From the NCBI GenBank assembly GCA_002868905.1, contig PKUA01000012.1, positions 1,863 through 65,862 on the forward strand: a DNA stretch of 64,000 nt, in the 5' to 3' direction. Below the pieces are notes generated by a model, which was given only the letters and a program-made list of their open reading frames with translations, made no database searches and was not told the DNA's origin. The translations under genes and the position numbers were made by a program. Of this stretch, positions 9,325 to 44,716 are shown piece after piece. The DNA is from Desulfuromonas sp. (GTDB lineage Bacteria > Desulfobacterota > Desulfuromonadia > Desulfuromonadales > Geothermobacteraceae). The stretch's first letter is position 1; every line of letters starts with the position of its first letter.

Positions 9325-9413
9325 GGTCGATTACCGGATCAGCGATCATTGCCTTCCGACCGCTGTCTGACATGAGGCTGTCCCCCCAACCAAGACCTGG
9401 ATGGGGAAAAAGC

Positions 9414-10334: not shown

Positions 10335-10358
10335 AGTGTCATAGACAAGTGTTCGGGT

Positions 10359-28447: not shown

Positions 28448-29315
28448 TCTGGACTTGCTCCCGGATCTTTTCGAGTTCTGATTTCAGACTGACGACAGCG
28501 GATGCCATAACGGCATCATTCCCCTTGGAGCCGATCGTATTGGCCTCCCGGTTCATCTCCTGAACCAGGAAATCCATCTTACGACCGATCGGTCCCTCGA
28601 CCTGCAGCATCTGTGCGAACTGGTCGAGGTGGCTGTGAAACCGGACCAGTTCTTCACTGATATCACACCGATCGGCATAGAGTGCAAGCTCCTGGACCAG
28701 CCGTTGCGGGTCACATTCCACATCCTCCTGCAGCCGGGTTAAACGCTCACGCAATTTTTTCTGCCACTCAACCGGAACTGTCGCCGCACGCTCTGAGATC
28801 GACTCGAGCAGTTGACGCAGCACCTCGCCTCGTTCGAGCATGTCCTGGCCCAGGGCTGCACCTTCGGCCCTGCGCATCTCGTCCAGAGTCGTCAAAGCGG
28901 CATCGACCCCCCCTTCCAGCAGCGACTGCAGGTTTTCTTCCGGGATATCCGCCTCGGCCACTTCCAACACGTCTTTCTGTTCAGCCAGCCAGGTGGAGGA
29001 AAACGTTCCCCCGCCCCCTTCCAGCTCCTGCAACTCCCGCAACGCAACCAGATACGATTCCGCGAGAGCGCGATTCACCTTAACCTTCGGTAATTGCTCG
29101 TCTTCCCGTTCCAGGGTGATGAAAATATCGACCTTGCCCCGTTGGGCCGACTCAGAAACCCGCTTGCGCAATGCAGGCTCAAACGGCGCAAACTGCCGCG
29201 GCGAACGGATATTGATGTCACAGAATCGATGGTTGACCGCCTTGATCTCAACGTTCAACACCAACCCCTCCCTGGTGGCACTTCCTCGGCCGTAACCGGT
29301 CATACTTCGAATCAT
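28437..29315 (-). CDS. yicC: YicC-family stress-induced protein
   Basis: Contains MIRSMTGYGRG...LVQEMNREANTIGSKG. Start at ATG 29315, forming an ATGA overlap with the cysQ stop. Confidence 0.9.
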   Translation of the reverse strand: MIRSMTGYGRGSATREGLVLNVEIKAVNHRFCDINIRSPRQFAPFEPALRKRVSESAQRGKVDIFITLEREDEQLPKVKVNRALAESYLVALRELQELEGGGGTFSSTWLAEQKDVLEVAEADIPEENLQSLLEGGVDAALTTLDEMRRAEGAALGQDMLERGEVLRQLLESISERAATVPVEWQKKLRERLTRLQEDVECDPQRLVQELALYADRCDISEELVRFHSHLDQFAQMLQVEGPIGRKMDFLVQEMNREANTIGSKGNDAVMASAVVSLKSELEKIREQVQNVV

Positions 29316-30112
29316 GCCCATTCACCTTTCCAAGGGGGACCTGTCGCAAGAAATATCGGATTCAGCAAAGACTCTTTATTGTAACGCAATGGAACACTTC
29401 CGGGGTCGACAACCTGCCCCCCTGCGCCGATCAACACGGCGTGGCCGGCCGCCGTATCCCATTCCATCGTCGGACCGAAGCGTGGATAGTAATCAGCCGA
29501 TCCGTCCGCGACCCGGCAGAACTTCAGGGAACTGCCGAAAGGCAACTGATTGTAGCTGGGGAGCCGCTCAAGAAATCGCGCCAGATCCGGAGAAGGATGA
29601 GAGCGACTGGCGACCACGTTCCAACACTCCTTTTCGGACCCGACCGGCACCTCTAATTTCCGAACCGTTTGCGCAGCGGTTTCGAGCCAGGAGCCATACT
29701 CCGGCCCGCCGGCGTAAAGCTGCTCCTGGGCCGGAACAAACACAACACCGAAGACAGGCGTCGAACCGATAATCAGGGCTATATTGACAGTGAACTCACC
29801 GTTTTTATTAATGAATTCTTTGGTGCCATCGAGAGGGTCGACAAGAAAAAACATCTCCCAGCGACTCCTCTCCTCCCAGGAGATCTCTCCACCCTCTTCC
29901 GACAAAACCGGGATATCCGGGAAATGCTCGCTTAATCCAGCAGCGATGCAATGGTGCGAAGCCCGGTCAGCCTCGGTCAGAGGAGAACTATCCTCCTTCC
30001 AATCGACGGCGATATCCCCGACCGTGTTGTAAATCCCCATAATGGCCGTCCCGGCTTGCCTGGCGAGTTTGCAGAGCAAAGCTTGCTGTTCCCGGTTGAG
30101 ACGATATTCCAT
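29312..30112 (-). CDS. cysQ: 3'(2'),5'-bisphosphate nucleotidase (PAP phosphatase)
   Basis: Inositol-monophosphatase fold. Contains VLSEEG, VDPLDGTKEF and WDTAAGHAVL. Start at ATG 30112 (MEYRLN), 4 nt after the cysN stop; the track ORF extends to 30184. Confidence 0.85.
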   Translation of the reverse strand: MEYRLNREQQALLCKLARQAGTAIMGIYNTVGDIAVDWKEDSSPLTEADRASHHCIAAGLSEHFPDIPVLSEEGGEISWEERSRWEMFFLVDPLDGTKEFINKNGEFTVNIALIIGSTPVFGVVFVPAQEQLYAGGPEYGSWLETAAQTVRKLEVPVGSEKECWNVVASRSHPSPDLARFLERLPSYNQLPFGSSLKFCRVADGSADYYPRFGPTMEWDTAAGHAVLIGAGGQVVDPGSVPLRYNKESLLNPIFLATGPPWKGEWA

Positions 30113-30116
30113 AGCT

Positions 30117-31946
30117 TTATCCCTTGAAAATGATACCCTGCTCCTGGAGCAGGGACTTGACATGGGCGACACCGTCTTCAACATTCAACTGAGCCGGCAC
30201 TTCCGTATCGGCCGAGACCGGCATGCCTGATTGATCGCCTGACCAGACCACAAGGACAGGATGCCGCTGCAGAACGGTTCGGATCATCTCGAGATCATGC
30301 TGGCTCAAATCAATGGCGGTTGCCACCAGGATCATGCCGGAATCAAGGAACAAATGGGCTACCTCGGCAAAGCGACGCAGATGTTCGTCGCGATGCTCCA
30401 CCCGGCTGTCACTGCCGGGGGTCTTCAGGTCGGCATCGACCCCGTACAGCAGACTGCCGATACCGAGATAATAGGTTAACCGGCCGTGGGAGAACAGATC
30501 TGCCTCCAGCGCCTTGGCGACCTCCTTTTTCCGCGAGTCCTCGTGGCCGGTCACTAGGACCAACGCAGCTCTCTGGCAATAGTGTTCGGCGCGTTGCAGC
30601 CGACCGATCGCACTCTTCTCCCACTTGATGTTCCGGGTCATCACCTTGTCGCGCAACCAGCTCTGATCATCCTCAAGAGCCTCCTGGATGATCCCGCCGC
30701 CGGCGATTTCGTAATCATCGATAATGACGAAACGTCCCGTCTCGGCATTATCGACCGAAAGGTCGAAAGCAATCGGCTGATCACACTGCAGGACACATTC
30801 TGCCACATCGTGCCGTTTCACTTCCTCCGGGCTTGCCAAAGCTTCCAGGTTGGACGCATCGATCAACCGGTTGATCTGCTCCAGTCGTGCCCGAACCTTG
30901 CAGGTCCCGATCCGCAACAGGACATCCCGACTGGAGGACAGGCTCTTCCTGGCAAGCCAGAACAGGCTGACCTTCAACCGGGTTGCCACCTTGGGATTCG
31001 CCTCCCCTTCAATCGCAACCATATCCCCACGTGTCACGTAGAGTTGCTCTTCCAGGGTTATCCCAACCGGGTTGCCGCTGATTTCACTGCCCGGTATGTC
31101 TGCGGGGGATTCTGGCACCGGAAAAGTCTGGAGACTTTGCACGGTCGTTCTTTTCCCGGACGGGAAGAAAACGACTTTATCCCCGACCCGAACCCGACCG
31201 CTGGTAATGGTGCCGGCAATGATACGGCGGCTGTCCCCGAAGCGGGTGAACTTGTAAACGTCCTGAACCGGCAACCTGAACGGCAGGCTCTCATCGGGCG
31301 GCAACACTTCAAAATCGTCCAGAGTCTGCAGGACGGTTTTCCCGTCGTACCACGGCATCCCCTCTCCGAAACCTGCGACATTGTCTCCCGCCATACCGGA
31401 AACCGGAATGAACAGTTCAGCTTCGAGACCGATCCCGCTCAGGAACTCGGAATATTCGCTGCGAATCCGCTCAAACACCTGCTGGCTGTAACCGACAAGG
31501 TCCATCTTGTTGACCAGGACGGCGATCTTGCGAATGCCGAGCATGCCGAGCATGTAGCCGTGGCGACGGGAGTTTTCCTGCACTCCCTCATTGGCATCGA
31601 TCACCAACAGGGCCGCCTCCGCCCGGGAAGCGCCGGTAATCATATTTTTCAGGAATTCGATATGCCCCGGCGCGTCAATAATGATGTAGTGCCGTTTCTC
31701 GGTTTTGAAAAACACCCGCGCTGAATCAATGGTGATGCCCTGGGACTGTTCGTCCTTCAAGGCATCGAGCAGGAAAGCGTATTCAAACGGCTTGCTGGTC
31801 CGCTCGCAGAGATCACGAATCTGCTGGAGCTTCCCTTTCGGCAGGCTGTCGGTATCCGCCAGCAGGCGTCCGATAACGGTCGATTTCCCATGATCGACGT
31901 GACCGACGATCACGATATTCATCTGTTGTTTCATACTGGTTGGCAT
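30117..31946 (-). CDS. cysN: Sulfate adenylyltransferase subunit 1 (CysN GTPase) fused to a degenerate APS-kinase-like C-terminal domain
   Basis: GTPase motifs [17 protein letters not shown] and NKMD. The C-terminal domain of about 165 aa aligns by eye to APS kinase but has GHEDSRKKE where the P-loop GLSGSGKST should be. Confidence 0.88.
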
Positions 31947-31985
31947 TCCGTTTATTTAGAGGTTCCTGATAACAATCAGAACAAA

Positions 31986-32888
31986 TTACATGTAGCCGTC
32001 ACGCCGCAAAGTCTCAAGACCGCCGCCGTCATCCTTGTCCTGGGCCCGTCCGGAGCGCTCAGCAATATTTGACAGTTGCCCACTCTGCAACTCGTCGATA
32101 ATGTCGTCAACCGTCTTCGACGTCGAATCGATCGGAGTGGTGCAAGGCTGGCAGCCGAGGGAGCGATACCGTTTCCCATCTCCCTGGTCGTAATAGAGAG
32201 AGACGGTCGGGATCTCCTCCTGGCGGATATATTCCCAGATATTCAACTCGGTCCAGTCGAGCAGCGGGTGGATACGGACATGGGTGCCTGGCGCAAAATC
32301 GGTTTTGTAGTAGCTCCAGAACTCGGGGGGCTGATCGGCGATATCCCAGGTCGCGGCACGATTACGGGCCGAAAAATAACGTTCCTTGGAACGGGATCCC
32401 TCCTCGTCCGCCCGCACTCCGGCAATGACCCCGGTATACGGCTCGTTGTTGCGATCCAGATCGTATTCACCTGTTTTGTGGTTGAAACGATAGCGGGGCC
32501 AGCTGCCATCCAGGGTGTGAACCAGCGCCTGGGTCTTGAGATTGCGGCAGCAGGTAATCCGGTCGACATTCCCGTCAGGAAACGTCTCCTTTTGATCCAG
32601 GGCGGAAGCATTCTCACCCACCACCATGGTCAGTCCCCACTCTTTGGTCAGACGGTCCCGGTAGCTGATCATCTCGGGGATTTTATAGTGGGTGTCGATA
32701 TGCACAAGCGGAAACGGCACATGCCCGTAAAACGCTTTGCGTGCGAGCCAGAGCATCACGGTGCTGTCCTTGCCGATCGACCACAGCATGCACAGGTTGC
32801 CGAAGCTGGCATACGCTTCGCGCAGGATATGGATAGAGATGTTTTCCAGTCGTTTCAGGTGTGGAAATGTCCTTTTAGTCGTCATCAA
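31986..32888 (-). CDS. cysD: Sulfate adenylyltransferase subunit 2
   Basis: 300 aa. Contains [19 protein letters not shown] (PP-loop SxGKDS) and [10 protein letters not shown]. Confidence 0.93.
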
Positions 32889-32932
32889 TCTTTCCTGATT
32901 TCTCCGCGCCGGGCATCAACGGTTGACCCGGG

Positions 32933-33556
32933 CTAAATATAAAGGGCATTCAACCCTTTAAGATAGTTGACTTCTTCCAAGTAGTCGAGAATGGCCTCAA
33001 CCGCCTGCTCGACATTCAGTTGTTCCGTATCGATCGTCATCTCCGGGTTCAAAGGCTCTTCGTATGGGCTGGAAATCCCCGTAAAGTCAGGGATTTGTCC
33101 TGCGCGTGCTTTTTTGTATAGCCCCTTTGGATCCCGCTGTTCGCAACGATCCAGACCACATTTGACATGAATTTCGATAAACTCCCTAGGCTCCAGAATG
33201 GCACGTACCCGATCCCGGTCCTCCCGAAACGGCGAGATGAAAGCGGCCATCACCACCATTCCGGCATCAACGAAAAGCTTGGCCATCTCCCCGATCCGAC
33301 GGATATTTTCCGTGCGGTCATCGGCGCTGAATCCGAGATCGCTGTTCAGACCGTGCCGGACATTGTCGCCGTCCAGAACGTAGGTATGCCACCCCTGGCG
33401 AAACAGGCGTTCGTGCACGGCATGAGCCAAGGTCGACTTGCCGGACCCGGAAAGTCCGGTAAACCAGAGGACCATCGAACCGTGTCCATTGCGTGAGCGG
33501 TAATCGCTCTTACGCACCGAACCTTCGTGCCAGACGATGTGACGTTCAGCGGACAC
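32933..33556 (-). CDS. cysC: Adenylylsulfate (APS) kinase
   Basis: 207 aa. Contains [36 protein letters not shown] and [31 protein letters not shown], all canonical. Confidence 0.93.
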
Positions 33557-34307
33557 GCAGCAACCTCCGTTTCAGATAGTCATAGACCTGATCAGCGGCG
33601 ACGTCGAAATCTGTGTCATCGACGTCGATGACAATCTCGGGGGCTGAACTTTCCTCGTAGGCGACGTCGACACCGGGGAAATACCGGTATTCGCCATTAC
33701 GGGCGAGTGCATAGTGCCCCTTGTCATCCCGTTTTTCGCATGCCTCGGCTGTCGACCTCATATGGACTTCGACAAAATGTCCGGCCACCTGGCGGGCAAA
33801 TTCACGACTCTGCCTGTAGGGCGAGACAAAGGAAGCGACCACGACCACCCCGTTTTTTTCGAGCATGGCAGCAAGATGCCCGGCCCGCTTGACATGGCGG
33901 TCCACCTCGTCCGGAGAGAAACCGGTCTCCGGAAACAACGGACGGACATCGTGGCTATCGATCCGTTCGACCTTCAGGCCGAATTCCCGCAACCTCCTGG
34001 TGACCTCATCAGCCACAATTTTCTTGCCGGAAGCGGGCAGTCCGGTAAACCAGAGGACAAAGGGTGCTATCTCCTTCCGTCCGTAGCGGATTCGCGTCCA
34101 GAGGCGCTCGTGAAAAAAATAGAGCCCCATCTTCGCCACAACTTCCAACAAACCAACCGTAATGGCCAGTGTCAGTTCGCCGGTAAAAATCAGCACAATA
34201 ACGGCGGTGGTTACTGTCGCCCATATCCGCCAGGAAACCGCCTTGAAAACGGAGCGGCGCTTCGTCTCAAAAATCACTGCCGTACTCCTCGATCTTTCCC
34301 GAAGCAC
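33546..34307 (-). CDS. DUF2061 membrane domain fused to an APS-kinase-like domain
   Basis: N-terminal [14 protein letters not shown]...[10 protein letters not shown] is the 2-TM DUF2061 signature. C-terminal [29 protein letters not shown] and [10 protein letters not shown] parallel the CysC motifs with substitutions. Confidence 0.75.
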
Positions 34308-34330
34308 GCCCGGCCATCAGCCGGCCGACC

Positions 34331-34357
34331 AAAATAGGAAAGGGGCGAAACCGCCCC
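34331..34357 (-). terminator. Intrinsic terminator after gmhB
   Basis: On the minus strand: GGGGCG-gttt-CGCCCC followed by TTTCCTATTTT. It lies in the 124-nt gap between gmhB and the DUF2061-APSK gene. Confidence 0.55.
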
Positions 34358-34431
34358 AAGTAGCCTCTAACCGTTTAGGATAACGGCTTAAACTGTGGAA
34401 AATTATCACAAAAGGACCTTGAGGGTCAATA

Positions 34432-35022
34432 TCACTGACACTCCAGATCGCCTTCGTCGAGAACCAGGTTAACGGCTGCCGGCAGGTCATCGACAACATT
34501 CAGCGCCCCCCCCCCGGTCATCTCCGTTTCAACCCCGTATCCGGTCCGGACCAGAATGGAGCGGCAACCCGCCCTGTGACCGGCCTCCAGGTCGGCCGAC
34601 TTGTCGCCGACCATGTAGGAGGCCGCCAGGTCGATTCCGAGTTCTCCGGCCGCCTGCAGCAGCAACCCCGGCGCCCCCTTTCTGCAGTCACACTCGCGCC
34701 TGAGTTTCCCCGTTCCGGCCGTCGGGTGATGCGGGCAGATGTAAAATCGATCGATGCGAGCGCCAAAATGTGACAATTGCGCCTGAATGTGCGTATGCAG
34801 CTTCTCGACGTCTTCCAGGGGGAAATAACCGCGGGCTACCCCGGATTGATTGGTAACCACCACCACAAGGCAACCTGCCTTGTTCAAACGAGCAATCGCC
34901 TCAGGCACTCCCGGAATGAATTCAAAGTCCTCGATGCGGTAAAGATAATCTTTCTCCACGTTGATTGTGCCATCTCGGTCGAGAAATACCGCTTTACGCA
35001 ATGTTTGTCCTGGAGAGATCAT
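34432..35022 (-). CDS. gmhB: D-glycero-D-manno-heptose 1,7-bisphosphate phosphatase (HAD)
   Basis: Contains VFLDRDGTIN, VVVTNQSGVARG, CPHHP...C.CRKGAPG and VGDKSADLEAG. Confidence 0.88.
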   Translation of the reverse strand: MISPGQTLRKAVFLDRDGTINVEKDYLYRIEDFEFIPGVPEAIARLNKAGCLVVVVTNQSGVARGYFPLEDVEKLHTHIQAQLSHFGARIDRFYICPHHPTAGTGKLRRECDCRKGAPGLLLQAAGELGIDLAASYMVGDKSADLEAGHRAGCRSILVRTGYGVETEMTGGGALNVVDDLPAAVNLVLDEGDLECQ

Positions 35023-35031
35023 CCCGGATGA

Positions 35032-36504
35032 TCACGCGTCGCCGTACTGTTCCAGAATACGGTCAATGATGTTCGAGGTCGATTTGCCATCGACAAACTG
35101 AATCAACTTCAGACAGCCGCCATAAGATTCAACGAACTCGCGCCCGACCACCTGTTCCGGCTCGTAGTCCCCCCCCTTGATCAGCACGTCCGGACGGACT
35201 CGTTCGATCAACTCCTGCGGCGTGTCCTGATTAAAGACTACCACGTAATCGATGCAGTCGAGTGCGGCGAGGATGTGCGCCCGCTCCTCTTGGCCGATCA
35301 ATGGTCTTTTCTCCCCTTTCAACCGCTTGATCGAGCTGTCGGAGTTCAAACCGAGCACCAGGAGATCGCCGGCCATGCGGGCCTTCTCCAGGTATTTGAC
35401 ATGACCGACATGGAGCAGGTCGAAACAACCATTGGTAAAAACGATACGTCTCCCCCGCAGCCGCTCTTTTTCGAGCGCGGTTGCCAAGCCGTCCCAGCTG
35501 AGGATTTTGCGTGCCACCCCGAGGTCTTCCCGTCCAACTTCCTGCAAAATTTCTTCGGGGAGCACGGTCGATGTCCCGACCTTGCCGACCACAATTCCCG
35601 CCGCAAGGTTGGCCAACTCCACCGCCTGCACAAAATTCCGCCCGGTGGCGAGGGCAACACCGAGACCTGCAAGGACCGTGTCTCCAGCTCCCGAGATATC
35701 GAAAACCTCGCGGGCGCGGGTCGGCAGATGACGTACATCCTCATCACGCACGAACAGCGACATCCCCTCCTCGCTTCGGGTGACAACCAGGGCGTCGAGA
35801 TCGAGGCGCTCGCGTAAAGTCTCCGCGGCCGCGACCAGGGCCTTATCGTCAGGCAGGGATCGACCGACGGCGATGGACAACTCCTTGCGGTTAGGGGTCA
35901 ACAGGGTCGCTCCGTGGTACTTGGCGTAATCATCCCCCTTCGGGTCGACCAGAACCGGGATCCCCTTTTCCCTGCATATTCCGATAAGATTCTGGACAAG
36001 GTTTTCCGTCAGGGTACCCTTGAGATAATCCGACAGCAGGACGATATCGACCTCGGCCACCAATTGACGGCAGGCAGACAGCAGGCGCTGCTCCAGTTCT
36101 TCATCGAGCGGTGTACATATCTCACGATCGATGCGCATCATCTGCTGTTGCTGGGCAATGACCCGTGACTTGCGGGTGGTGCAACGTTCGCCTGAAACCA
36201 GCAACCCCTCCGTGTCGATCCCGGAGCCGGAGAGAATCCTGTTTGCCTCGCGACCATCGAGGTCATCACCGACAACACCAGCCAGCTTGACGTCGACACC
36301 GAGCGTTGCGAGATTCAGAGCGACATTGCCTGCGCCGCCGAGGCGAAGTTCTGTCCGGACAATGTTGACCACCGGTACCGGCGCTTCGGGAGAGATCCGA
36401 CCGGCATCCCCCCAAAGATACTCATCGAGCATCAAATCACCTGCGACCAACACCTTGCGACCTGACAAATCCTTGAACAGTTCGGTGATCGTCTCGAAAT
36501 CCAT
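35032..36504 (-). CDS. hldE: Bifunctional D-beta-D-heptose 7-phosphate kinase / heptose 1-phosphate adenylyltransferase
   Basis: N-terminal PfkB kinase domain (VLVAGDLMLDEYLWG...DISGAGDT). C-terminal cytidylyltransferase domain (VFTNGCFDLLHVGHVKYL). Start at ATG 36504, sharing 1 nt with the gmhA stop; the track ORF extends to 36651. Confidence 0.92.
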   Translation of the reverse strand: MDFETITELFKDLSGRKVLVAGDLMLDEYLWGDAGRISPEAPVPVVNIVRTELRLGGAGNVALNLATLGVDVKLAGVVGDDLDGREANRILSGSGIDTEGLLVSGERCTTRKSRVIAQQQQMMRIDREICTPLDEELEQRLLSACRQLVAEVDIVLLSDYLKGTLTENLVQNLIGICREKGIPVLVDPKGDDYAKYHGATLLTPNRKELSIAVGRSLPDDKALVAAAETLRERLDLDALVVTRSEEGMSLFVRDEDVRHLPTRAREVFDISGAGDTVLAGLGVALATGRNFVQAVELANLAAGIVVGKVGTSTVLPEEILQEVGREDLGVARKILSWDGLATALEKERLRGRRIVFTNGCFDLLHVGHVKYLEKARMAGDLLVLGLNSDSSIKRLKGEKRPLIGQEERAHILAALDCIDYVVVFNQDTPQELIERVRPDVLIKGGDYEPEQVVGREFVESYGGCLKLIQFVDGKSTSNIIDRILEQYGDA

Positions 36505-37076
36505 CACCCCTCCTGGCACGTTAACCGGCTCTCGATCATGGCACAGAGCATGTGAATGACCGTCACATGCGCCTCCTGAATATGCGGTGTCTCCTCCGAA
36601 GGGACGACAAGACCGACATCGGTTGCCGCGGCGAGCGGACCCCCATCGCACCCGGCCAGGCAGACAGTCGCACAGCCTCGCTGCCGCCCTGCCTCAACCG
36701 CCTGGAGAACGTTCGGAGACCGCCCACTGGTGCTGATTCCACAGATCACGTCCCCGGGAGCGGCAAGGGCCTCCACCTGGCGGGCATAGACCATTTCAAA
36801 ACCGTAATCATTCCCGACGGCGGTCAGGATCGAACTGTCCGTGGTCAAGGCGATCGCGGGGATGGCCTTGCGCTCCTTGCGAAAACGACCGACCAGCTCA
36901 GCAGCAAAGTGCTGCGCGTCGGCGGCCGACCCACCGTTTCCCATGACCAGAAGCTTGCCGCCGGCCTGCAACGAAGCGACGATGACATCCGCCAGCTCGA
37001 GAATGGTACTGGCATGGTCCTCCTTGACCCTGTTCAAAACCTCGACGTGTTTTTCAAGATAACCAGCGATATCCAT
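36504..37076 (-). CDS. gmhA: Phosphoheptose isomerase (SIS domain)
   Basis: 190 aa. Contains LVMGNGGSAADAQHFAAELVGRF...GISTSGRSPNV. Confidence 0.92.
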   Translation of the reverse strand: MDIAGYLEKHVEVLNRVKEDHASTILELADVIVASLQAGGKLLVMGNGGSAADAQHFAAELVGRFRKERKAIPAIALTTDSSILTAVGNDYGFEMVYARQVEALAAPGDVICGISTSGRSPNVLQAVEAGRQRGCATVCLAGCDGGPLAAATDVGLVVPSEETPHIQEAHVTVIHMLCAMIESRLTCQEG

Positions 37077-37109
37077 CAGGTTCCCTTTTAATGGTTGATC
37101 CGCCTGCGA

Positions 37110-37778
37110 TCAGTCTAGCTCGGCCGGATCGAAGCGGTAGTCGAACAGATCAATGTCGGCCCGGAAATAGTCCGCCACCAAGGCGGCCGTCTCATCGTCA
37201 TAGTAGGAGCGATAGTCTTTTCGATCACTCGCCTTGCGTCGATGTTCAAGTTGCGGTGGCGCGATACCGATCCGGTTGCAAACCGTGGTGAAATCCTCGT
37301 GCAATCGTTCGTAGCGACCGACAAAATCGACCAGTACCTTGCCGTGCAAATCAACCAGGTAGTCCGACTGCAACTCGATGGAGGTGTCGATATGATACTG
37401 GTACGGACGTTCCGGATCGAGCTTGTATTTCAGAAAATCGGCGAAGGTGTCATGGCCGGCGACCAGGTGCGGCCGCTCACGCCTGATATGATGGAACGAG
37501 CTCACCTGGAGATCCCACGGATTGCGTACGAAGGCAAACTTGAACAACCGGTCGAAGATCTCCTTCGGCAGCATCTCCCTGGCAGCGATGACCTTGGCAT
37601 GCCGCGGTATCTTGCAGGCGAGGCGGTGGCCGGTGAGATGACTGAAACGACTGCAGACGAACTGCAGGGGAAACAGCGGATCGCGCCAGCGCAGACGACT
37701 CAAAGTCGCCCGCACACTGGTCCCGCCGGTTTTGGCGATATGAACGTAAAGAAAATTATATTTGTGACTTATCAACAT
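37110..37778 (-). CDS. Sulfotransferase family 2 protein (PAPS-dependent carbohydrate sulfotransferase-like)
   Basis: 222 aa. Contains FLYVHIAKTGGTSV (5'-phosphosulfate-binding loop, P/A-K-T-G-G-T-S) and FAFVRNPWDLQVSSF (3'-phosphate-binding R-N-P...S), typical of Sulfotransfer_2 members. Confidence 0.75.
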   Translation of the reverse strand: MLISHKYNFLYVHIAKTGGTSVRATLSRLRWRDPLFPLQFVCSRFSHLTGHRLACKIPRHAKVIAAREMLPKEIFDRLFKFAFVRNPWDLQVSSFHHIRRERPHLVAGHDTFADFLKYKLDPERPYQYHIDTSIELQSDYLVDLHGKVLVDFVGRYERLHEDFTTVCNRIGIAPPQLEHRRKASDRKDYRSYYDDETAALVADYFRADIDLFDYRFDPAELD

Positions 37779-37814
37779 GGCTCAGATTATTCTGTGAATC
37801 GACCCTTCAGTGGA

Positions 37815-38927
37815 TCATTTCAGTAATAAATCGGCATATTGCCGGCTGCTCTCCTCGACCGTAAACGATTGTACAGCCAGTTGCAAACTCTTTGGGTCGG
37901 GCGGGGCCTCGAGCACATGATTCATAGCGGTGGCCAATGCGTTGACATCCCCCACCGGGACAAGCGGCGCCACTTGACCTCCCTGGAGAATTTCACGTGG
38001 GCCGTTCGGACAATCGGTCGCCACCACAGGCGTTCCGACCGCCAGCGCTTCAACCAGAACGTTCCCGAAACCTTCCCATGCCGACGACAAGACGAAAAGG
38101 TCGGCTCTCGCCATGTAGGCATATGGGTTGTCAACAAAACCCGGAAGATCGACTTTCGCATTCAGGCCGAGTTCGTCCCGCAATGCCTCAAGTTTCTTTC
38201 GATCGCCCCCTTCACCCAGGATAACCAACCGACACGCCCTCTGCTGCTCCAATATTGCAAAAGCCCGCAGCAGGGTGGGAAAGTCTTTTTGTCGGGTCAA
38301 ACGGCCGACCCCCAGCACGACCGGCTCACCTCCATCCCCAAACCAGGGATGAGGACACGGCTCTCCGGCCTGGCTGGCAAGATTCGCGGGGACCGTCGGA
38401 TTATAGATGGTATGGAAAAAGCCGCGCGACAAACCGGTGATCCGGCACAGGTCATCGGCAACACCATCGGAGATCCCTACGATTCCATCTGCAAAACGAT
38501 AGAACATTCGCATGGGCAGAAACCTGGCCGTGCGCTGCAACCAGGATTTCCCTGCAAGGGCCGCCGAGGGGGTTGTGCCAATGCGAATCAGCAATTTTTC
38601 CGGTTGTCCGCCGGCCAAAACCCTGGCAAGGACGGCGACCTGTCCGGCGCGGTCCTTGGCGGCAAGCAGGGCATCAGGACGTGCCTTGCGGATATAGCTA
38701 GTCAAGGCGAATAAACTGGACATGGTGTGTCTCGCCTTCAGCTTGACCACGTTCACTTCATCCGGCAGGCCCACAAGATGATCGCTCTCGGCCTTCACCA
38801 AAACCAGATCAACCCGGTGCCCGAGATCGACCAGCCCCCGACAAAGGTTGCAGACCATCTTCTCCACCCCGCCCATGCCGGAAAAAGAGACAAAGACGGC
38901 AAGGTGCTTCTGCTTAATCTCTCGCAA
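37815..38927 (-). CDS. Glycosyltransferase family 4 (GT-B, RfaB-like)
   Basis: 370 aa. N-terminal SFSGMGGVEKMV. C-terminal LSSAWEGFGNVLVEALAVGTPVVATD, the E(x7)E GT4 motif. Confidence 0.85.
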   Translation of the reverse strand: MREIKQKHLAVFVSFSGMGGVEKMVCNLCRGLVDLGHRVDLVLVKAESDHLVGLPDEVNVVKLKARHTMSSLFALTSYIRKARPDALLAAKDRAGQVAVLARVLAGGQPEKLLIRIGTTPSAALAGKSWLQRTARFLPMRMFYRFADGIVGISDGVADDLCRITGLSRGFFHTIYNPTVPANLASQAGEPCPHPWFGDGGEPVVLGVGRLTRQKDFPTLLRAFAILEQQRACRLVILGEGGDRKKLEALRDELGLNAKVDLPGFVDNPYAYMARADLFVLSSAWEGFGNVLVEALAVGTPVVATDCPNGPREILQGGQVAPLVPVGDVNALATAMNHVLEAPPDPKSLQLAVQSFTVEESSRQYADLLLK

Positions 38928-39810
38928 TGATCCGTCCGTTCAGGAACTCTTCGACCGATCCCGGTTCCACCCTTGGGAAAATACTCGCTGGCAGGCGTGA
39001 ATAGGGGCTGGCATTCACAACCTTCACGCCGAGGGTTCGACATGCATCGGCACCCCAGGCAAAATGCGGCTCGATAAACTGTTCGTAATCCTGGTCGATC
39101 ATTGATTTCTCCGGACTTTCCTCCTCGTAAAAGCGGCGTGATCCACCCAGGTCGAGACCATAGTAGACAATCTGGTCGTACCCCAGGGCAATAGATACCT
39201 GGAGGGCAAGGTAGGCCACGGTTTTCACCCCCGCGAATCCATGATCGGGGTTAATGGAGAATTCCTGCAGGCCATTGAAAAACAGACCTTGCTCGGGAAC
39301 GTGGCCCGGAGTCGGCAGGGGCTTGTTAAAAGGGCGTTTCACCTGATCGAAAAGGACAACTTTTTTGTCGCCCAGAATATCGGGGTCCGTTTCAAGAACT
39401 TCCTTCAGCACCCGATGATCGACCAGAAGGGATCTGGCTTTTTTAACGCCTTCGACAAAATTCTTCCACTGACGTCTTACGAAACCGACATCGGCCACCA
39501 GATAGTAGGAAAAAACCTCGTCAGTTCCTCGATAGATTGAATGGGAGCCGTTCACGACCATTGACGGGCGATTCCGAAAAAACGACTCTCCTTTTATGTC
39601 AGCGACTGAAGGACCGGAACAGATGATGCTGATGGCGCCTGACTCCCCTCTCACCAGGCGTTCGGCACGGCAAGATACCTTGCCCGAACTCACGCGGTAT
39701 CCACTCCCGTCTTCAGTGACACGGTAGCTCGGACCGTAATAGCGCCAATGCCAATACTGCCTGCCACGAAACAGGAGATAACCACGATATAAAATTTCCG
39801 CTAAATCCAT
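38914..39810 (-). CDS. Putative glycosyltransferase of unclear family (DUF115/MptE-like or Kdo/sialyl-transferase-like)
   Basis: 298 aa and soluble. IICSGPSV resembles the GNGPS nucleotide-sugar loop of CMP-sugar transferases and DUF115 proteins. Sits in an LPS-core context. The assignment comes from memory of motifs only. Confidence 0.35.
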   Translation of the reverse strand: MDLAEILYRGYLLFRGRQYWHWRYYGPSYRVTEDGSGYRVSSGKVSCRAERLVRGESGAISIICSGPSVADIKGESFFRNRPSMVVNGSHSIYRGTDEVFSYYLVADVGFVRRQWKNFVEGVKKARSLLVDHRVLKEVLETDPDILGDKKVVLFDQVKRPFNKPLPTPGHVPEQGLFFNGLQEFSINPDHGFAGVKTVAYLALQVSIALGYDQIVYYGLDLGGSRRFYEEESPEKSMIDQDYEQFIEPHFAWGADACRTLGVKVVNASPYSRLPASIFPRVEPGSVEEFLNGRIIARD

Positions 39811-39834
39811 TGCACCTGCCTGAACCTACACTTG

Positions 39835-40557
39835 CTACAGGTTGTCCGTGTTGCCCAGAAGGAGGTCATCCAACGAGTCGGGGACATTCCTGGCCTGATG
39901 GGCCTCGGCCAAAATCTGCTCAAGGCGTCTAACTTCAGCCTCTGCATTGGCCGGCTTAACCCCCACCACCGAACAGAGATCAATGACGTAACCTCTTTCC
40001 TGTTGTCGAAAACAACTCAGGATCTGATCCGGGACGACCCCCGCCGCCTTTATCTGGCTCAAGGTCGCATTCCGCTTGCGCGGCAAATGATAAACATTTT
40101 CGGAGATCAGACCGCAACTCGGCCCAAGCGATTTCCTGTCCCTCACATATTGATCGACAAAGCAGATTCCAAGTGGCTGTGGTCCCAGCCCGGCACGCCA
40201 AAGCCTGCAACTGACCAGCCAGATCTCGGACAGCCTTCGATAAACCGTGGTAGAAAGAGCTCTGCGCCAATCATCCATCTCATAGCGGCCTACCTTCCCC
40301 TGGACATTGAGCAAGGCATCTTCGGTCGGTCGAGACTTGCGCACGCAATCAATTCTGCCGTTATTGCCATAAAAATACTTCTCCTCGCTGGCAGGCAGAT
40401 AGAACATCCATGCGCCCGGATTCGCGACCTGCAATACACCATCGACCGTCGCCTGCCCGGAAGAAGAATTGAGCATGATAGTTGAATGAAAAACCGTGCG
40501 CAACGGTTCACGTTTTTCCGACATATATCGCTTGCTAAAACGGGTGAGAAATTTCAT
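39835..40557 (-). CDS. Hypothetical protein, possibly a degenerate kinase-fold paralogue of the adjacent LPS kinase
   Basis: 240 aa with no TM segments. The only similarity I can see is ...AGVVPDQILSCFRQQERGYVIDL versus KGFSHGDVNFYNFLLCQGEIFIIDL in the neighbouring gene. Confidence 0.3.
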   Translation of the reverse strand: MKFLTRFSKRYMSEKREPLRTVFHSTIMLNSSSGQATVDGVLQVANPGAWMFYLPASEEKYFYGNNGRIDCVRKSRPTEDALLNVQGKVGRYEMDDWRRALSTTVYRRLSEIWLVSCRLWRAGLGPQPLGICFVDQYVRDRKSLGPSCGLISENVYHLPRKRNATLSQIKAAGVVPDQILSCFRQQERGYVIDLCSVVGVKPANAEAEVRRLEQILAEAHQARNVPDSLDDLLLGNTDNL

Positions 40558-40592
40558 GGCAATCCAAAATCACATTACGATCCGTCCTGTCC

Positions 40593-41342
40593 TCAATCAG
40601 GCCGGACCCAGCGTGTCCCCTCAAAGTCGGTCGCTTTTTCCTTCGCCCGACCGAGTAGGTACTCGGCTTTTTCACCGAGGTTGCAACCGGCGGCCGCTTC
40701 ATAGGAACTTAACAATTCACGCTGACGATCCAACCCGACACCAAGGAGGTTTGTTTTGGCGAAAAAAGTGATCAGGTCACGTGTTCGGCGCTTACCATTA
40801 AGCCGTTTTACCCTGGCAAGATCGATGATAAAAATTTCGCCCTGACACAGCAGAAAATTGTAAAAATTGACATCCCCGTGGGAGAACCCTTTTTTATGTA
40901 TTACACCAAGCAGGCATGTCAGTTTCTTCAACAACCCGAAATCATCCGTACGTTCAAGATATTCCTGTGCCGTCTCTCCCTGGAGCTTTTCCACCGCGAC
41001 AATACCACGTTCCCCCGTCCCTTGACCTTCGACTCCATAGAAAAGAAGTTTCGGTGTCAACAACCCACATCCGGCGAATCGCTGATAGGCCTTTCCTTCG
41101 GTGAGCGCCTCGTTCCGTTTTGCAAACAACCTGCGAAAGAATTTCTTTTCGACATTCCGCTGGTAAATTTTGACGAAGGCAGCGTTCTCCGGGACAGATT
41201 CCGGGAGTGGCAGGTAAGCCATTTGTCGATATCCAATCATTGGGATATTGAGCATCTCCGTCAAAGACCTCCTCACCCAACCAGCGATTTCCGCATCTCG
41301 AGCCCTTACCTGGAATGAGCCTATTCGAACAGCTTCATACAT
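40593..41342 (-). CDS. Lipopolysaccharide kinase family protein (Kdo/WaaP/InaA-type, protein-kinase fold)
   Basis: 249 aa. Contains FVKIY (VAIK-Lys equivalent), a catalytic loop GFSHGDVNFYNFLL, and the metal-binding IFIIDLAR. Confidence 0.7.
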   Translation of the reverse strand: MYEAVRIGSFQVRARDAEIAGWVRRSLTEMLNIPMIGYRQMAYLPLPESVPENAAFVKIYQRNVEKKFFRRLFAKRNEALTEGKAYQRFAGCGLLTPKLLFYGVEGQGTGERGIVAVEKLQGETAQEYLERTDDFGLLKKLTCLLGVIHKKGFSHGDVNFYNFLLCQGEIFIIDLARVKRLNGKRRTRDLITFFAKTNLLGVGLDRQRELLSSYEAAAGCNLGEKAEYLLGRAKEKATDFEGTRWVRPD

Positions 41343-41344
41343 GG

Positions 41345-42397
41345 TCAGGCCACAAGGTTCCGAATCGAGGCAAACATATTATTTGCAGAACTTTGTGAGT
41401 TTTCAATCAACGCCTCAACACCCTCAAGTTCACCAACAGTCCACGACAGATTCGCCGAAATCTGTTCAGTGACATCTTCGACGCTGTCGACCAAGCGTCT
41501 TTGCAAACCAGCCTCTGCGAGCAAGGCCTCCACTTTAAAAGTATTGGATGCAACCGCCAGAAACGGCGTCCGCAACAGCATGGCAAGGCAAATCCCGTGA
41601 AAACGCCCCGTGACGAAAAGTTCACACCGCGCCAGGGCCTGCAGAAAATCCTCCATGCCGCACCCCTTGAACATCACCGCTTTAAAGGGGACGTATCCGG
41701 GGTTTCCGCTGCCGACGACCCCACCCAGAGCCTTGAACAACTCTTTCTTGAGCCGATAATCGCATGTCGCCCAGATATTGCGCAATCGGTCACTCGGTTT
41801 TCGTCGCCGGAGCCGGGGTCGCAAGGTTTCCATGGGAAGGAAGGTCGACCCTGGCAAACTGGCTGCGAAATCGAACAAGCGCCTCGCCTCGTTCTTGTTG
41901 ACGTGATCCGTAAACAAGATCCCGGACCGTTTGTCAGCGCCCAACATCCCGGGATCCGATGACAGAACCAGGTCCGGCACCACCTCGGCGTCAACGATCC
42001 CCTCAAGTTCCTTCAGGCTTAACGGGTCCCTTACGAACACACGATCAAAATTGCGAACATGGTCAACAAATTCGGGACCATTCTGCTGGTAGAGCGCGTT
42101 GATGAGGACCGCCGGAATGCCGCGGGACCGGCAGAAGCTCGCAACCCGGACCAGTGTCAGTCCATTCGGCGCATCATGATGAATGGTACCCTCTCCGTTA
42201 ACCAGGCAGAGATCGAAACCGTCAATCCGTTTGCACAATTGACTGTAAGGAGTCCCCATGGCACATGTGGCCACGATCTCTATGCCGTTCCTGGCGGCGA
42301 GGCGGCGAATCTGATCAACCACGATCCGGCACCCGAAATGTCCGCTTAAGGAGGTGTCATTGACCAGGATCGCCCGGATGAGGCGCGGCGACGTCAT
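41345..42397 (-). CDS. Polysaccharide pyruvyl transferase family protein
   Basis: 350 aa. Contains LVNGEGTIHH, FVRDPLSLKEL and VTGRFHGICLAMLLRTPFLAVASN, matching the PS_pyruv_trans (CsaB/WcaK-like) pattern. Confidence 0.7.
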   Translation of the reverse strand: MTSPRLIRAILVNDTSLSGHFGCRIVVDQIRRLAARNGIEIVATCAMGTPYSQLCKRIDGFDLCLVNGEGTIHHDAPNGLTLVRVASFCRSRGIPAVLINALYQQNGPEFVDHVRNFDRVFVRDPLSLKELEGIVDAEVVPDLVLSSDPGMLGADKRSGILFTDHVNKNEARRLFDFAASLPGSTFLPMETLRPRLRRRKPSDRLRNIWATCDYRLKKELFKALGGVVGSGNPGYVPFKAVMFKGCGMEDFLQALARCELFVTGRFHGICLAMLLRTPFLAVASNTFKVEALLAEAGLQRRLVDSVEDVTEQISANLSWTVGELEGVEALIENSQSSANNMFASIRNLVA

Positions 42398-43494
42398 CTT
42401 CCCTCTCTCCCCGATAACGCAAGCAGTTTTTCATACACGGCAACATTCCCCTCTACCATCTGATCGACACCAAATTCTTCGGCAACCAGGCGCCGCCCAC
42501 CTTCACCGAGGGTTTTCAGCTTTAGGGAATCCGCAAGCAAAAGATTGATGGCCGCTTCCAGGCAAGCAGTGTCGGCCGGTTCGACCAGAACCCCGTTGAC
42601 CCCGTCACGCACAACTTCAGGGATTCCTCCTGCGGCAGAAGCAATAATGGGGACACCTGCTGCTGCAGCCTGCACCAGTGAAACACCAAGCCCCTCCATC
42701 AAGGCTGGATGAACAACCAGGTCGAGACAAGGGAGAAGGCGTTCAAGGTCGGTCCTGAACCCTGCAAAGACAACGATTTCTTCAAGTGCCAACTCCTTGA
42801 CCAATCTTTCCAGGTCGGCCCTGCTCCCTCCCTTTCCCAAAAACAGGACTTTCAGATCGGGATGGTTGACCAGAACCTTCGGCAAAGCTTGCAACAGATA
42901 ACGATGCCCTTTACGTGGAATCAACTGGGCGATGACAGCGATGGTCCTGTCTTGCGGCGAGAAGTCGAACTCCTTCCGGAACCAGTCCATGTCCCCCTCA
43001 TGCTGATAAGGGGTCGCATCGATAGCGCTGCGCACGCAGCATAGGCTTTCAGGAGGAACCCCCTCCCGGAGAAGGACATGCCTGATCCCTTCCGATATGG
43101 TCACCACCTTGGAAAAACGAGAATATTTCCAGCGCGCCCACCAACCAGGCTCCGGGTTGTCGACCCGGCGCGTTACAATAGCAGGCACCCGGCATTGGGA
43201 CGCAACCAGCCCTCCCCAGAAATCAGCGCCGCGGCGGCTATGGACATGCAGGATATCCGGTTTCACCGACCTGATCAGCCGACGGAGTGCAATGGGGAAT
43301 CTCAGGTCAAGATCCCCTCCGGCCGTCACCTCATGAACGACAGCATTCCTGTGACAACAGTCGGCGATCTCGCTGCCGTCGGTGCAGACCAGGTGGTTTT
43401 CGACCCCTCGTTCACGTAAGCCTTGAAGCAAGTAGGCCACCTGCAAAGCGCCGCCGTAAAGCTGCCGACCGAGTTCAACGTGCATCACCTTCAT
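42394..43494 (-). CDS. Glycosyltransferase family 4
   Basis: 366 aa. Contains MKVMHVELGRQLYGGALQV and HPALMEGLGVSLVQAAAAGVPIIASAAGGIPEVV. Confidence 0.85.
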   Translation of the reverse strand: MKVMHVELGRQLYGGALQVAYLLQGLRERGVENHLVCTDGSEIADCCHRNAVVHEVTAGGDLDLRFPIALRRLIRSVKPDILHVHSRRGADFWGGLVASQCRVPAIVTRRVDNPEPGWWARWKYSRFSKVVTISEGIRHVLLREGVPPESLCCVRSAIDATPYQHEGDMDWFRKEFDFSPQDRTIAVIAQLIPRKGHRYLLQALPKVLVNHPDLKVLFLGKGGSRADLERLVKELALEEIVVFAGFRTDLERLLPCLDLVVHPALMEGLGVSLVQAAAAGVPIIASAAGGIPEVVRDGVNGVLVEPADTACLEAAINLLLADSLKLKTLGEGGRRLVAEEFGVDQMVEGNVAVYEKLLALSGREGR

Positions 43495-44543
43495 GCCGGC
43501 ACAGCCCCCATGGCCTTATGTGCGGCCTCGAGAACCTCTTCTACGGTGAGCGAACGCATGCAGTCGAATCGTCCATCGCAGGTCGGATTCCTCCGGCATG
43601 GAGAGCAGTCGAATGGATGATAAAGGATTTCGGTTGTTAATCGCCCTGTCCGCAGGTAGGGGCATGTCGAACCGAACAGTCCGACCGTTGGCCGTGCAAA
43701 GGCTGTCCCGAGGTGGGTCAACCCGGTATCGACACCGACAACAAGTTCGGCATCTGCGACTACGGCCATGCTTTGGGCGAGCGACGTCTCACCGGCCAGA
43801 TTAAATAGTCTATCCTGACGACCTATCAACCTCTCGCCTGCCTCCTGATCACCTGAGCCACCAAGGACGTAACACGGCTGTCCCGCTGCCTCGAATCGAG
43901 CGATCAGCTCAATCCAGCGTTCTTCGAACCAATGTTTCTGCGGGCGTGTGGTAAACGGCGCAAGGACGGCATACCCCTTGTCGCCGACATCCTGATTCCG
44001 CCTATCCCGCCACCAGTGACGCGCAGCCTGGCCAGGCTCGAGTTCGAATCGACACATAGCGGGATCAATGCCCAATGTTTCTGCCATAAACAGATATTCC
44101 GAGCCGATGACGGTATTATCACCGCCCTTGCTGACGACTTCATGCATCAGCCACTCTCCGGGCTCCTTCGATACGAAACCGATGCGCCTTTCCGCACCGC
44201 TCAGGGCAGCCAACAGGCGACTTCGCATTAAACCCTGCAGATCGAGACAGAGGTCGAATTGTTCGTGGCGTAAATCCCTGCGCAAGGAAAAGATTTGACC
44301 CGCCAAGGAGAGCAGGTGGCCGCGTCGCAGTAACCCGGACCATTCCTTCTTCGACCAGGGGATCACCCGGTCAAGAGCAGGATGATGCTGAATCAGGTCG
44401 GCAAGCCCCGGGTCAATCAGCCAGTGAAGCCTTGCGTCCGGCAACACCTGCTTCAATCCCGACAAAACTGGACTCGCCATGATCACATCGCCCATTGCGC
44501 TTGGGCGGACAATCAGGACATTTCTAACCGAAAGCAGGTTCAT
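43491..44543 (-). CDS. Glycosyltransferase family 9 (LPS heptosyltransferase, WaaC/WaaF-like)
   Basis: 350 aa. Contains VLIVRPSAMGDVIMASPVL, plus GSGDQEA...LAGETSL and VGVDTGLTHLGTAF. Confidence 0.85.
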   Translation of the reverse strand: MNLLSVRNVLIVRPSAMGDVIMASPVLSGLKQVLPDARLHWLIDPGLADLIQHHPALDRVIPWSKKEWSGLLRRGHLLSLAGQIFSLRRDLRHEQFDLCLDLQGLMRSRLLAALSGAERRIGFVSKEPGEWLMHEVVSKGGDNTVIGSEYLFMAETLGIDPAMCRFELEPGQAARHWWRDRRNQDVGDKGYAVLAPFTTRPQKHWFEERWIELIARFEAAGQPCYVLGGSGDQEAGERLIGRQDRLFNLAGETSLAQSMAVVADAELVVGVDTGLTHLGTAFARPTVGLFGSTCPYLRTGRLTTEILYHPFDCSPCRRNPTCDGRFDCMRSLTVEEVLEAAHKAMGAVPA

Positions 44544-44716
44544 GAATCAACCAACCCTGTTCCCGCGCTGAAACTACCTCGGTTATCGCCAGACATGGAC
44601 ACAAAAATCCCTCCCGGGACACTCTCGGTGAGACCGGGGAAAAACAGATCCGCCTTGAACAATGCGATGACAGCAAAACACATAAAGAACAGGAACCAAG
44701 CCAAGGCGAAGGATCG

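Follow-up and report, generated by a model that had tools for sequence, protein, structure and literature searches.

A conserved glycosyltransferase-sulfotransferase gene pair and a PAPS-supply cassette in a lipopolysaccharide-core gene block of Desulfuromonas sp.: a predicted route to a sulfated core

The subject of this work is a block of 16 genes at positions 29312-44543 of a 64-kb stretch of DNA, the window, which comes from a metagenome-assembled genome (MAG) of Desulfuromonas sp. In our judgement the block is fairly likely to be a lipopolysaccharide (LPS) core operon in which a conserved gene pair, encoding a family 4 glycosyltransferase (GT4b) and a sulfotransferase, is combined with an inserted, dedicated cassette for the supply of 3'-phosphoadenosine 5'-phosphosulfate (PAPS), and in which a core sugar is sulfated in the cytoplasm. 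Of this scheme, the analysis shows the gene identities, the motifs, the operon-like packing and the comparative patterns. Pfam and NCBIfam were used for the profile searches, tblastn for orthologues, Rfam for RNAs and Foldseek for folds.

All 16 genes lie on the minus strand, and the families, identities and order that the original prediction had assigned to them passed the profile searches (Table 1). The cysD, cysN and cysQ genes, the sulfotransferase gene and the glycosyltransferase genes are co-located within 8.5 kb on one strand. The intergenic spacing is between -11 and +51 nt across the block, the sole exception being the 154 nt between gmhB and the gene of a DUF2061-fused kinase. GmhA, HldE and GmhB, i.e. 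the ADP-L-glycero-D-manno-heptose pathway, all exceed the equivalog cut-offs, and both subunits of CysDN, whose genes are 51 nt apart, exceed the curated ones.

We infer the acceptor as well as the site and timing of sulfation as follows. WaaA, the family 9 glycosyltransferase (GT9, for heptose I), a further family 4 enzyme (GT4a) and GT4b would assemble the core upon lipid A, on the cytoplasmic side of the inner membrane, with ADP-heptose coming from GmhA, HldE and GmhB. CysD-CysN would form adenosine 5'-phosphosulfate (APS) and the canonical CysC would convert it to PAPS. The soluble PF03567 sulfotransferase would then sulfate, with PAPS as the donor, a hydroxyl group on one of the core sugars, most likely that of GT4b, which probably installs the acceptor sugar. 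Sulfation would precede flipping by MsbA, and CysQ would remove the inhibitory by-product 3'-phosphoadenosine 5'-phosphate (pAp).

The sulfotransferase matched the profile of PF03567 (Sulfotransfer_2) with E = 5.9e-15 over residues 2-214, which bears out its earlier assignment; this was the only Pfam family reported at E <= 0.01, and NCBIfam gave no match. Membership of the Stf0 family, to which LpsS belongs, was not indicated, as no Stf0 match was found at E <= 0.01. The two PAPS-binding motifs had been described as intact, and this is what we see. K16 and G19-T20-S21 of the 5'-phosphosulfate-binding (5'-PSB) loop HIAKTGGTS, and R85 and S93 of the 3'-phosphate-binding (3'-PB) motif VRNPWDLQVSS, are invariant among 20 diverse homologues (mean column identity 76%). 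The PSB lysine and the serine of the PB helix are treated as defining features of sulfotransferases (PMC11625862). In the profile the 3'-PB region aligns with RNPSDVAVSYYH of solved sulfotransferases (the RNPxDVAVSYYH motif of SULT structures), and L90 occupies the position of the internal R in the PxxRxxS of PF03567. The invariant histidines H13, H51, H60, H96, H97, H129 and H179 are candidate catalytic bases, none of which can be singled out. The protein has no signal peptide and no membrane or hydrophobic segment; it is therefore placed in the cytoplasm, and should, as predicted from its sequence, be a soluble PAPS-dependent sulfotransferase. A structure-based assignment was also tried and set aside: the alignment was of low diversity (all sequences >=67% identical), the AlphaFold2 model was moderate (pLDDT 74.4), and the 37 best Foldseek matches in the PDB, all of them PAPS sulfotransferases, were weak (E 0.01-1, TM 0.22-0.44).

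The sulfotransferase has 2,993 database relatives and is encoded in at least 501 GTDB species-representative genomes. The best 120 relatives are all 67-100% identical and span several classes, with members in Desulfuromonas, Desulfobacterales, Chromatiaceae, Nevskiales and betaproteobacteria. Among representatives at 50% identity this tight group falls into about one cluster within a large superfamily of bacterial proteins of about 210 amino acids, which has 17,097 representatives at E <= 1e-3 and 74 at E <= 1e-30. It is conspicuous that no other gene of these loci is conserved as strongly as that of the sulfotransferase, whose identity across classes is 63-80%, as against 37-67% for GT9, GT4a/b, gmhA, hldE and gmhB.

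The genomic setting was surveyed by searching the window proteins against 82 sulfotransferase loci with tblastn (loci are given below as L and a number). In 38-40 of the 82, i.e. in essentially every locus that is not Chromatiaceae-like, the sulfotransferase gene has a same-strand GT4b orthologue (48-61% identity) immediately upstream. The pair occurs in Desulfuromonadales, Desulfobacterales, Nevskiales, Rhodocyclales, Hydrogenophilus, Halothiobacillus, Ectothiorhodospiraceae and Nitrospirota, and near it are found GT9, GT4a, lpxK, lptFG, msbA or a Wzy_C gene of the O-antigen-ligase type. In 22 of the 82 loci a GT9 orthologue (37-51% identity) is found no more than 10 kb from the sulfotransferase gene; GT4a orthologues (47-57%) occur in 30, mostly about 1 kb from GT9, the two forming an adjacent conserved pair of their own. 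L083 has the order lpxK-GT9-GT4-…-Wzy_C-GT2-GT4b-sulfotransferase-epimerase-gmhA-hldE-gmhB, and in L173 the series …AsnB-GT4b-sulfotransferase faces lpxK-lptF-lptG-msbA-lpxB. L172 and L173 were taken from the GT4b matches blind to their neighbours, and in both a PF03567 gene lies directly downstream. In L083, L085, L172 and L173 the pair sits unmistakably within LPS loci.

The nature of the acceptor sugar could not be read from GT4b itself, the best NCBIfam and PDB matches of which (PglJ, WaaB and other GT4 enzymes) are far under the cut-offs. A further feature of the survey is an AsnB-like amidotransferase gene, which lies 1-3.5 kb from the pair in about 20 loci (L005, L007, L035, L046, L063, L066, L074, L077, L081, L082, L172, L173 and Nevskiales loci) and of which the window has none. 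Its product may be a third partner, e.g. for the amidation of a uronic acid.

The second component, the cys block, has a different distribution. In a related Desulfuromonas (GCA_002868845.1; L085 and L086) the backbone of the window from waaA to rpoZ is present without any cys gene, the order in L085 being msbA-DUF374-waaA-lpxK/ycaR-GT4-GT9-GT4a-(second sulfotransferase)-GT4-GT4b-sulfotransferase-gmhA-hldE-gmhB-yicC-gmk-rpoZ-relA. In the window and in L170 the space between gmhB and yicC is taken up exactly by the DUF2061-kinase gene, cysC, cysD, cysN and cysQ, and the cys block with yicC is 84-95% identical between the two. Because L085 shares the backbone without the cys genes, the block is seen as an insertion between gmhB and yicC; in other words, the five-gene PAPS block is, by sequence comparison, a lineage-specific insertion.

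Two side observations concern the same relatives. The second sulfotransferase in the core cluster of L085 (7852-8811) and L086 (3648-4709) belongs to a different family (PF00685/PF13469) and stands between GT4a and another GT4 gene. Moreover, hldE and gmhA of L170, which are parted there by two unknown genes, reach only about 58-63% identity with their counterparts in the window; the core cluster seems to have been swapped by recombination beside a stable cys-yicC segment.

A separate case is provided by L055, from an unrelated delta-proteobacterial MAG with the order GT4-GT4b-sulfotransferase-gmhA-hldE-(CitMHS/TrkA_C permease-like)-cysD-cysNC-cysQ-gmhB. Compared with the window, CysD and CysN of L055 show only 34-38% identity, and the L055 CysN has a complete APS-kinase domain, which indicates at the sequence level that a different cys set is independently nested inside the ADP-heptose operon. 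We note that the permease-like gene of L055 (12910-14768; CitMHS and two TrkA_C domains) is broken across three reading frames. These breaks are probably frameshift errors of a long-read MAG, and the intactness of the gene is uncertain. As a rough estimate, the chance of a cys operon in a 20-kb window of a 4-Mb genome is about 0.5%, so that about 0.2 cases would be expected among about 40 LPS-type loci; two independent lineages were seen.

The family of the DUF2061 kinase is tight (65-89% identity) and has at least 526 relatives on metagenome contigs. In the loci examined (L087-L121, L170 and L171) its gene is the first of the cassette, and cysD, cysNC and often cysQ usually come after it. These cassettes lie in O-antigen, capsule and exopolysaccharide (EPS) clusters, frequently with sulfotransferases (L087, L088, L089, L171 and L117). 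Geothermobacter ehrlichii has gmhA-hldE-gmhB-ugd-rmlBDAC-cassette-Sulfotransfer_1-wzm-wzt; another cassette stands in a capsule locus (Wzi/Wza/Wzc/Wzx) that also holds cysQ and a Sulfotransfer_1 gene, another in an EPS locus, and a Desulfuromonadales locus reads GT2s-AsnB-GT4-sulfotransferase-Wzy_C-GT4-cassette. A Pfam census of 146 neighbouring open reading frames (ORFs) in 14 further loci was dominated by sugar-nucleotide and polysaccharide families, and local hidden Markov models showed sulfotransferase-like ORFs adjoining several more cassettes. In the same census the PAPS_reduct matches (7) equal the GTP_EFTU matches (7), and therefore there is no extra cysH near these cassettes.

The reductases were searched for directly. 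In the window no PAPS/APS reductase or sulfite reductase was found with Pfam on the large ORFs or by tblastn with E. coli CysH and CysI, in agreement with the original prediction. When E. coli CysH, CysI and CysJ were run by tblastn against 173 loci and the window (2.13 Mb), cysH or cysI lay beside no cassette or sulfotransferase locus, with the limit that small sulfite reductases not of the CysI type could evade the probe. Genuine cysH and cysI were seen only at L164, together with a plain APS kinase without DUF2061, and this locus serves as a positive control. Thus cysH or cysI adjoins the cys genes in none of the relatives, and relatives carry the sulfotransferase gene whether or not they have the cys block. 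The proposal that PAPS is used here as a sulfuryl donor is supported as a prediction, and no in-silico check refuted it.

The block contains three APS-kinase-type domains, which were compared with the canonical motifs, i.e. the P-loop GxSGxGK[ST] and LDGD. CysC has both intact (GLSGSGKST and LDGDNVR). The DUF2061-fused domain exceeds the cut-off of TIGR00455 (146.2 bits vs 138.7), but its P-loop reads GLPASGKK, with Lys replacing Ser/Thr, and I/LDSxDVR stands in the place of LDGD; both motifs are invariant across the family. Residues 13-55 of this protein are hydrophobic, and its nearest solved relatives are archaeal-type APS kinases. The protein called cysN-APSK-like in the original prediction is CysN over the cut-off. 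Its C-terminal domain (30117-30620) matches PF01583 with only 40.6 bits over a partial profile and lacks the kinase motifs, the P-loop being destroyed (TGHEDSRKK) and LDGDN changed to LGIGS. A separate cysC together with a CysN carrying a degenerate kinase domain is also found in L107 and L170; in other cassettes CysNC is an intact fusion and a separate cysC is missing. From these motifs we infer that CysC is the working kinase and that the other two domains would bind, sense or localise APS/PAPS. At the membrane, the supply of PAPS may be localised or regulated by the anchored DUF2061-kinase-like protein, and the degenerate tail of CysN probably has no catalytic function and may sense PAPS.

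With two of the three domains non-canonical or degenerate in their motifs, it could be argued that the sulfotransferase or the cassette is non-functional, i.e. a decayed remnant or a non-catalytic protein. We regard this as very improbable: every ORF is intact, CysC, CysD, CysN and CysQ exceed the curated cut-offs, and identities of 63-89% across phyla place both the sulfotransferase and the DUF2061 kinase under very strong purifying selection.

Several observations nevertheless weigh against the proposed LPS-core sulfation. The structure model and fold matches of the sulfotransferase are moderate and weak, respectively, and the catalytic motifs of the DUF2061 kinase depart from the canonical ones. 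No report of sulfate on the LPS of these lineages was found in the literature searched. Further points bear on the cys block, which may, as viewed from a 64-kb window, also serve assimilation. A terminator-like hairpin parts gmhB from the block, and the block is translationally coupled not to the LPS genes but to the housekeeping genes yicC and gmk, the stop of cysQ and the start of yicC sharing a 10 nt overlap. In L170 the cys block is present and no sulfotransferase was seen upstream, where its contig extends for 7 kb, and in L085 and L083 the same sulfotransferase cluster is found without neighbouring cys genes. All this would fit an ordinary assimilatory operon with its reductase elsewhere, whose adjacency to the LPS genes is incidental or whose general PAPS pool is tapped by the sulfotransferase. 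Moreover, cysDNC and cysJIH are separate operons in E. coli, so that the lack of cysH in 64 kb says little. We consider such an operon unlikely on the whole. Against it stand the different cys set nested independently in the same operon of L055, the two independent lineages where the rough estimate gives about 0.2 cases, and the DUF2061 kinase, which heads cassettes in polysaccharide clusters and is never beside cysH/cysI in the loci examined; and with cysC, cysQ and three kinase-type domains the block is equipped for making and recycling PAPS.

The gap between gmhB and the cys block was inspected for signals. The hairpin GGGGCGGTTTCGCCCC has six GC pairs followed by a T-rich tail, and the terminator that had been proposed after gmhB is thus found in the 154-nt gap; the simplest reading of it is as the LPS operon's terminator. 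Ahead of it, upstream of the DUF2061-kinase gene, a promoter-like site reads TTGACC-16-TGTGATAAT. In the region 8 such sites were found where 7.3 are expected from shuffled sequence, which is the level of chance. Both elements are kept in the close relative L170 only. The idea that they form a conserved leader of the cassette was dropped, since they are missing upstream of 30 other cassettes, and so was that of a riboswitch or known RNA in the gap, as Rfam matched nothing in the whole window.

The remaining point against the scheme concerns the sulfotransferase itself, which in about 44 of the 82 loci (Chromatiaceae and related gammaproteobacteria) stands apart from LPS genes. In 17 Chromatiaceae loci (L042 and 16 others, at about 9000-11500 in each) the arrangement is dapF-DUF484-xerC-sulfotransferase-DUF2189, and a Pfam census of 132 neighbouring ORFs in 27 further loci gave miscellaneous functions without glycan enrichment. 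An LPS link in Chromatiaceae was accordingly rejected, no glycan genes being present within 4-10 kb of the sulfotransferase gene. In this non-glycan setting the sulfotransferases are conserved at 67-75% identity. Since about 44 of 82 loci have no LPS or glycan neighbours, the family is not obligatorily linked to LPS; the link is strong outside Chromatiaceae and missing from the immediate neighbourhood within them.

The enzyme might then act on an acceptor other than the core, such as some other glycan of the envelope, a glycolipid, lipid A itself, a sugar nucleotide or a small molecule, and its adjacency to GT4b would mean a shared non-core product. The higher conservation of the sulfotransferase relative to the core genes hints at an acceptor that is steadier than the variable outer core, and L083 and L173 hold Wzy_C and GT2 genes, which are typical of outer-core or O-antigen attachment. 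In every locus outside Chromatiaceae, on the other hand, the pair is embedded among GT9, lpxK, lptFG, msbA and gmhA/hldE, and Pfam scans found no Wzx/Wzy, Wzm/Wzt or ligase genes in the window cluster, which leaves the core oligosaccharide as the sole glycan that it can build. On this evidence we hold a non-core acceptor to be quite unlikely and a core sugar to be the probable one.

The coordinates of the features are collected in Table 1.

Table 1. Genes and intergenic signals of the block, in the order of transcription. Scores are in bits; "vs" gives the cut-off.
Feature	Coordinates	Strand	Basis or remark
GT9 heptosyltransferase	43491..44543	-	PF01075, 128 bits
GT4a glycosyltransferase	42394..43494	-	PF00534 + PF13439
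Polysaccharide pyruvyl transferase family protein	41345..42397	-	PF04230, 59.5 bits vs 25.3
Kdo/WaaP-family LPS kinase-fold protein	40593..41342	-	PF06293, 37.8 bits vs 21.3
240-aa protein, no recognisable family	39835..40557	-	ORF; gene call on identical metagenome contigs
WaaZ-like (Kdo III transferase-like) protein	38914..39810	-	TIGR04437, 64.5 bits; PF27901 WaaZ_KDO_III
GT4b glycosyltransferase, partner of the sulfotransferase	37815..38876	-	PF00534 + PF13579
PAPS-dependent sulfotransferase (predicted)	37110..37778	-	PF03567, 56.5 bits vs 22
gmhA, sedoheptulose-7-phosphate isomerase	36504..37076	-	TIGR00441, 211.7 bits vs 209.45
hldE, bifunctional heptose kinase/adenylyltransferase	35032..36504	-	NF008454, 548.5 bits vs 521
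gmhB, heptose-1,7-bisphosphate phosphatase	34432..35022	-	NF006506, 191.7 bits vs 178
Promoter-like site, then GC hairpin with T-rich tail	34342..34429	-	site 34429-34402; hairpin with T-rich tail 34357-34342
DUF2061 membrane domain + divergent APS-kinase domain, first gene of the cassette	33546..34277	-	PF09834 + PF01583
cysC, canonical APS kinase	32933..33556	-	NF003013, 308 bits vs 163
cysD, ATP sulfurylase small subunit	31986..32885	-	NF003587, 342.9 bits vs 195
cysN, ATP sulfurylase GTPase subunit	30117..31934	-	TIGR02034, 338.6 bits vs 336.1
cysQ, 3'(2'),5'-bisphosphate nucleotidase (pAp phosphatase)	29312..30112	-	TIGR01331, 281.5 bits vs 228.8

The other genes of the block require a few comments. 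GT9 is closest to heptosyltransferase I (WaaC-like) by profile: TIGR02193 is the best among the heptosyltransferase models, at 176.1 bits just short of the cut-off of 185.3. The protein proposed earlier as CMP-sugar-transferase-like has a weak resemblance to WaaZ, only at the family level; the equivalog test failed, as its TIGR04437 score is far under the cut-off of 200 and the C-terminal part alone aligns. For the 240-aa protein no Pfam or NCBIfam match was found at E <= 0.01, and it has no hydrophobic segment. Among the loci examined, the genes for the pyruvyl transferase, the kinase related to 3-deoxy-D-manno-octulosonic acid (Kdo)/WaaP kinases and the WaaZ-like protein are confined to the lineage of the window and L170. 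Their products may add more anionic groups, as a family-level prediction; the description of the core as "highly anionic", through pyruvate and phosphate, goes back to family-level matches only. The starts of hldE (490 aa), cysQ (266 aa) and the DUF2061 kinase (243 aa) were shortened relative to the longest ORF, following the calls on identical metagenome contigs. A 47-codon ORF at 44540-44683 (minus strand), between ycaR and GT9 and with a 4-nt overlap with the latter, is also called as a gene on identical metagenome contigs.

Upstream, the lipid A/Kdo cluster reported to adjoin the block was confirmed (ycaR, lpxK, waaA, DUF374, msbA, lpxB, lpxA, fabZ, lpxD, skp and bamA). The remainder of the window consists of housekeeping genes, and Pfam scans of its ORFs found no sulfate transporter or permease.

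Phosphate, Kdo and uronic acids are usually credited with the negative charge of LPS cores. If the proposed scheme is true, sulfate esters, which stay charged even at low pH and are phosphatase-resistant, would join the anions of the core for many environmental Proteobacteria and Desulfobacterota. For metal- or sulfur-respiring Desulfuromonas this would change how the cell binds cations and minerals, how stiff its outer membrane is and how phages and antimicrobial peptides recognise it. A more far-reaching version, that the GT4b-sulfotransferase pair marks a widespread and chemically undescribed sulfated core epitope, found in hundreds of environmental species of at least six orders, and that the DUF2061 protein, anchored in the membrane and altered in its catalytic motifs, delivers or gates PAPS for the sulfation of envelope glycans, is put forward tentatively, and we are inclined to doubt it. 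In any case two uncharacterised, highly conserved families, the 220-aa sulfotransferase and the DUF2061-APS-kinase-like protein, are opened to assay, and the DUF2061-kinase-cysD-cysN cassette beside glycan genes is a possible genomic marker for sulfated bacterial glycans.

Among the known systems, LpsS of Sinorhizobium meliloti is reportedly an LPS sulfotransferase, from work of Cronan and Keating in 2004. To our knowledge it has not been described inside a core-glycosyltransferase/ADP-heptose operon or beside a PAPS cassette. The common feature is PAPS-dependent LPS sulfation by a cytoplasmic sulfotransferase, which is predicted for the window protein. LpsS is annotated in the Stf0 family (PMC12445080, Table 1), whereas the window protein belongs to PF03567 and is unrelated.

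The capsule of Cobetia marina is chemically proven to be sulfated, and cysNC-cysD-cysQ-permease and a sulfotransferase gene lie in one cluster (PMC11766843). As in the window, cysN/C, cysD, cysQ and a sulfotransferase gene are found within a glycan cluster. In C. marina, however, the product is a capsule exported by KpsMT, whereas that of the window would be an LPS core. The C. marina cluster has a sulfate permease, the window has none and L055 has a permease-like gene; conversely, no DUF2061-kinase gene is reported in C. marina.

Rhizobial NodPQ and NodH are a further parallel, NodPQ being a dedicated ATP sulfurylase/APS kinase for the sulfation of Nod factor. In both cases a duplicated or dedicated PAPS supply of the CysDN(C) type is tied to one sulfotransferase. 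The acceptor of NodH is a lipo-chitooligosaccharide signal, the genes are plasmid-borne symbiosis genes, and NodH, which is treated in a review of sulfotransferases (PMC11625862), belongs to PF13469 and not to PF03567.

The eukaryotic PF03567 enzymes (HS2ST, HS6ST and CHSTs) share with the window protein the Pfam family, the PSB lysine and the PB-helix serine, and they act on sugars. They are type II membrane proteins of the Golgi, whereas the window protein is bacterial, soluble and 222 aa long; its 3'-PB motif is RNPxxxxxS (SULT1-like) instead of the PxxRxxS of PF03567, and its structural matches are weak. The CysN of the window resembles fungal ATP sulfurylase (PDB 1I2D/1M8P) in having a C-terminal APS-kinase-like domain without kinase motifs, though the fungal protein is a homo-oligomeric enzyme and not a CysD/CysN GTPase system. 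The kinase-like domain of the fungal enzyme is non-catalytic and has an allosteric regulatory role.

Few bacterial glycan sulfotransferases have been characterised so far (PMC11625862), and in the literature searched no PF03567 enzyme in an LPS-core operon, no GT4b-sulfotransferase pair and no DUF2061-kinase cassette is described. The logic of the system, i.e. a dedicated PAPS supply for the sulfation of a glycan, is known; the enzyme family and the glycan, an LPS core, differ, and an uncharacterised membrane component is added.

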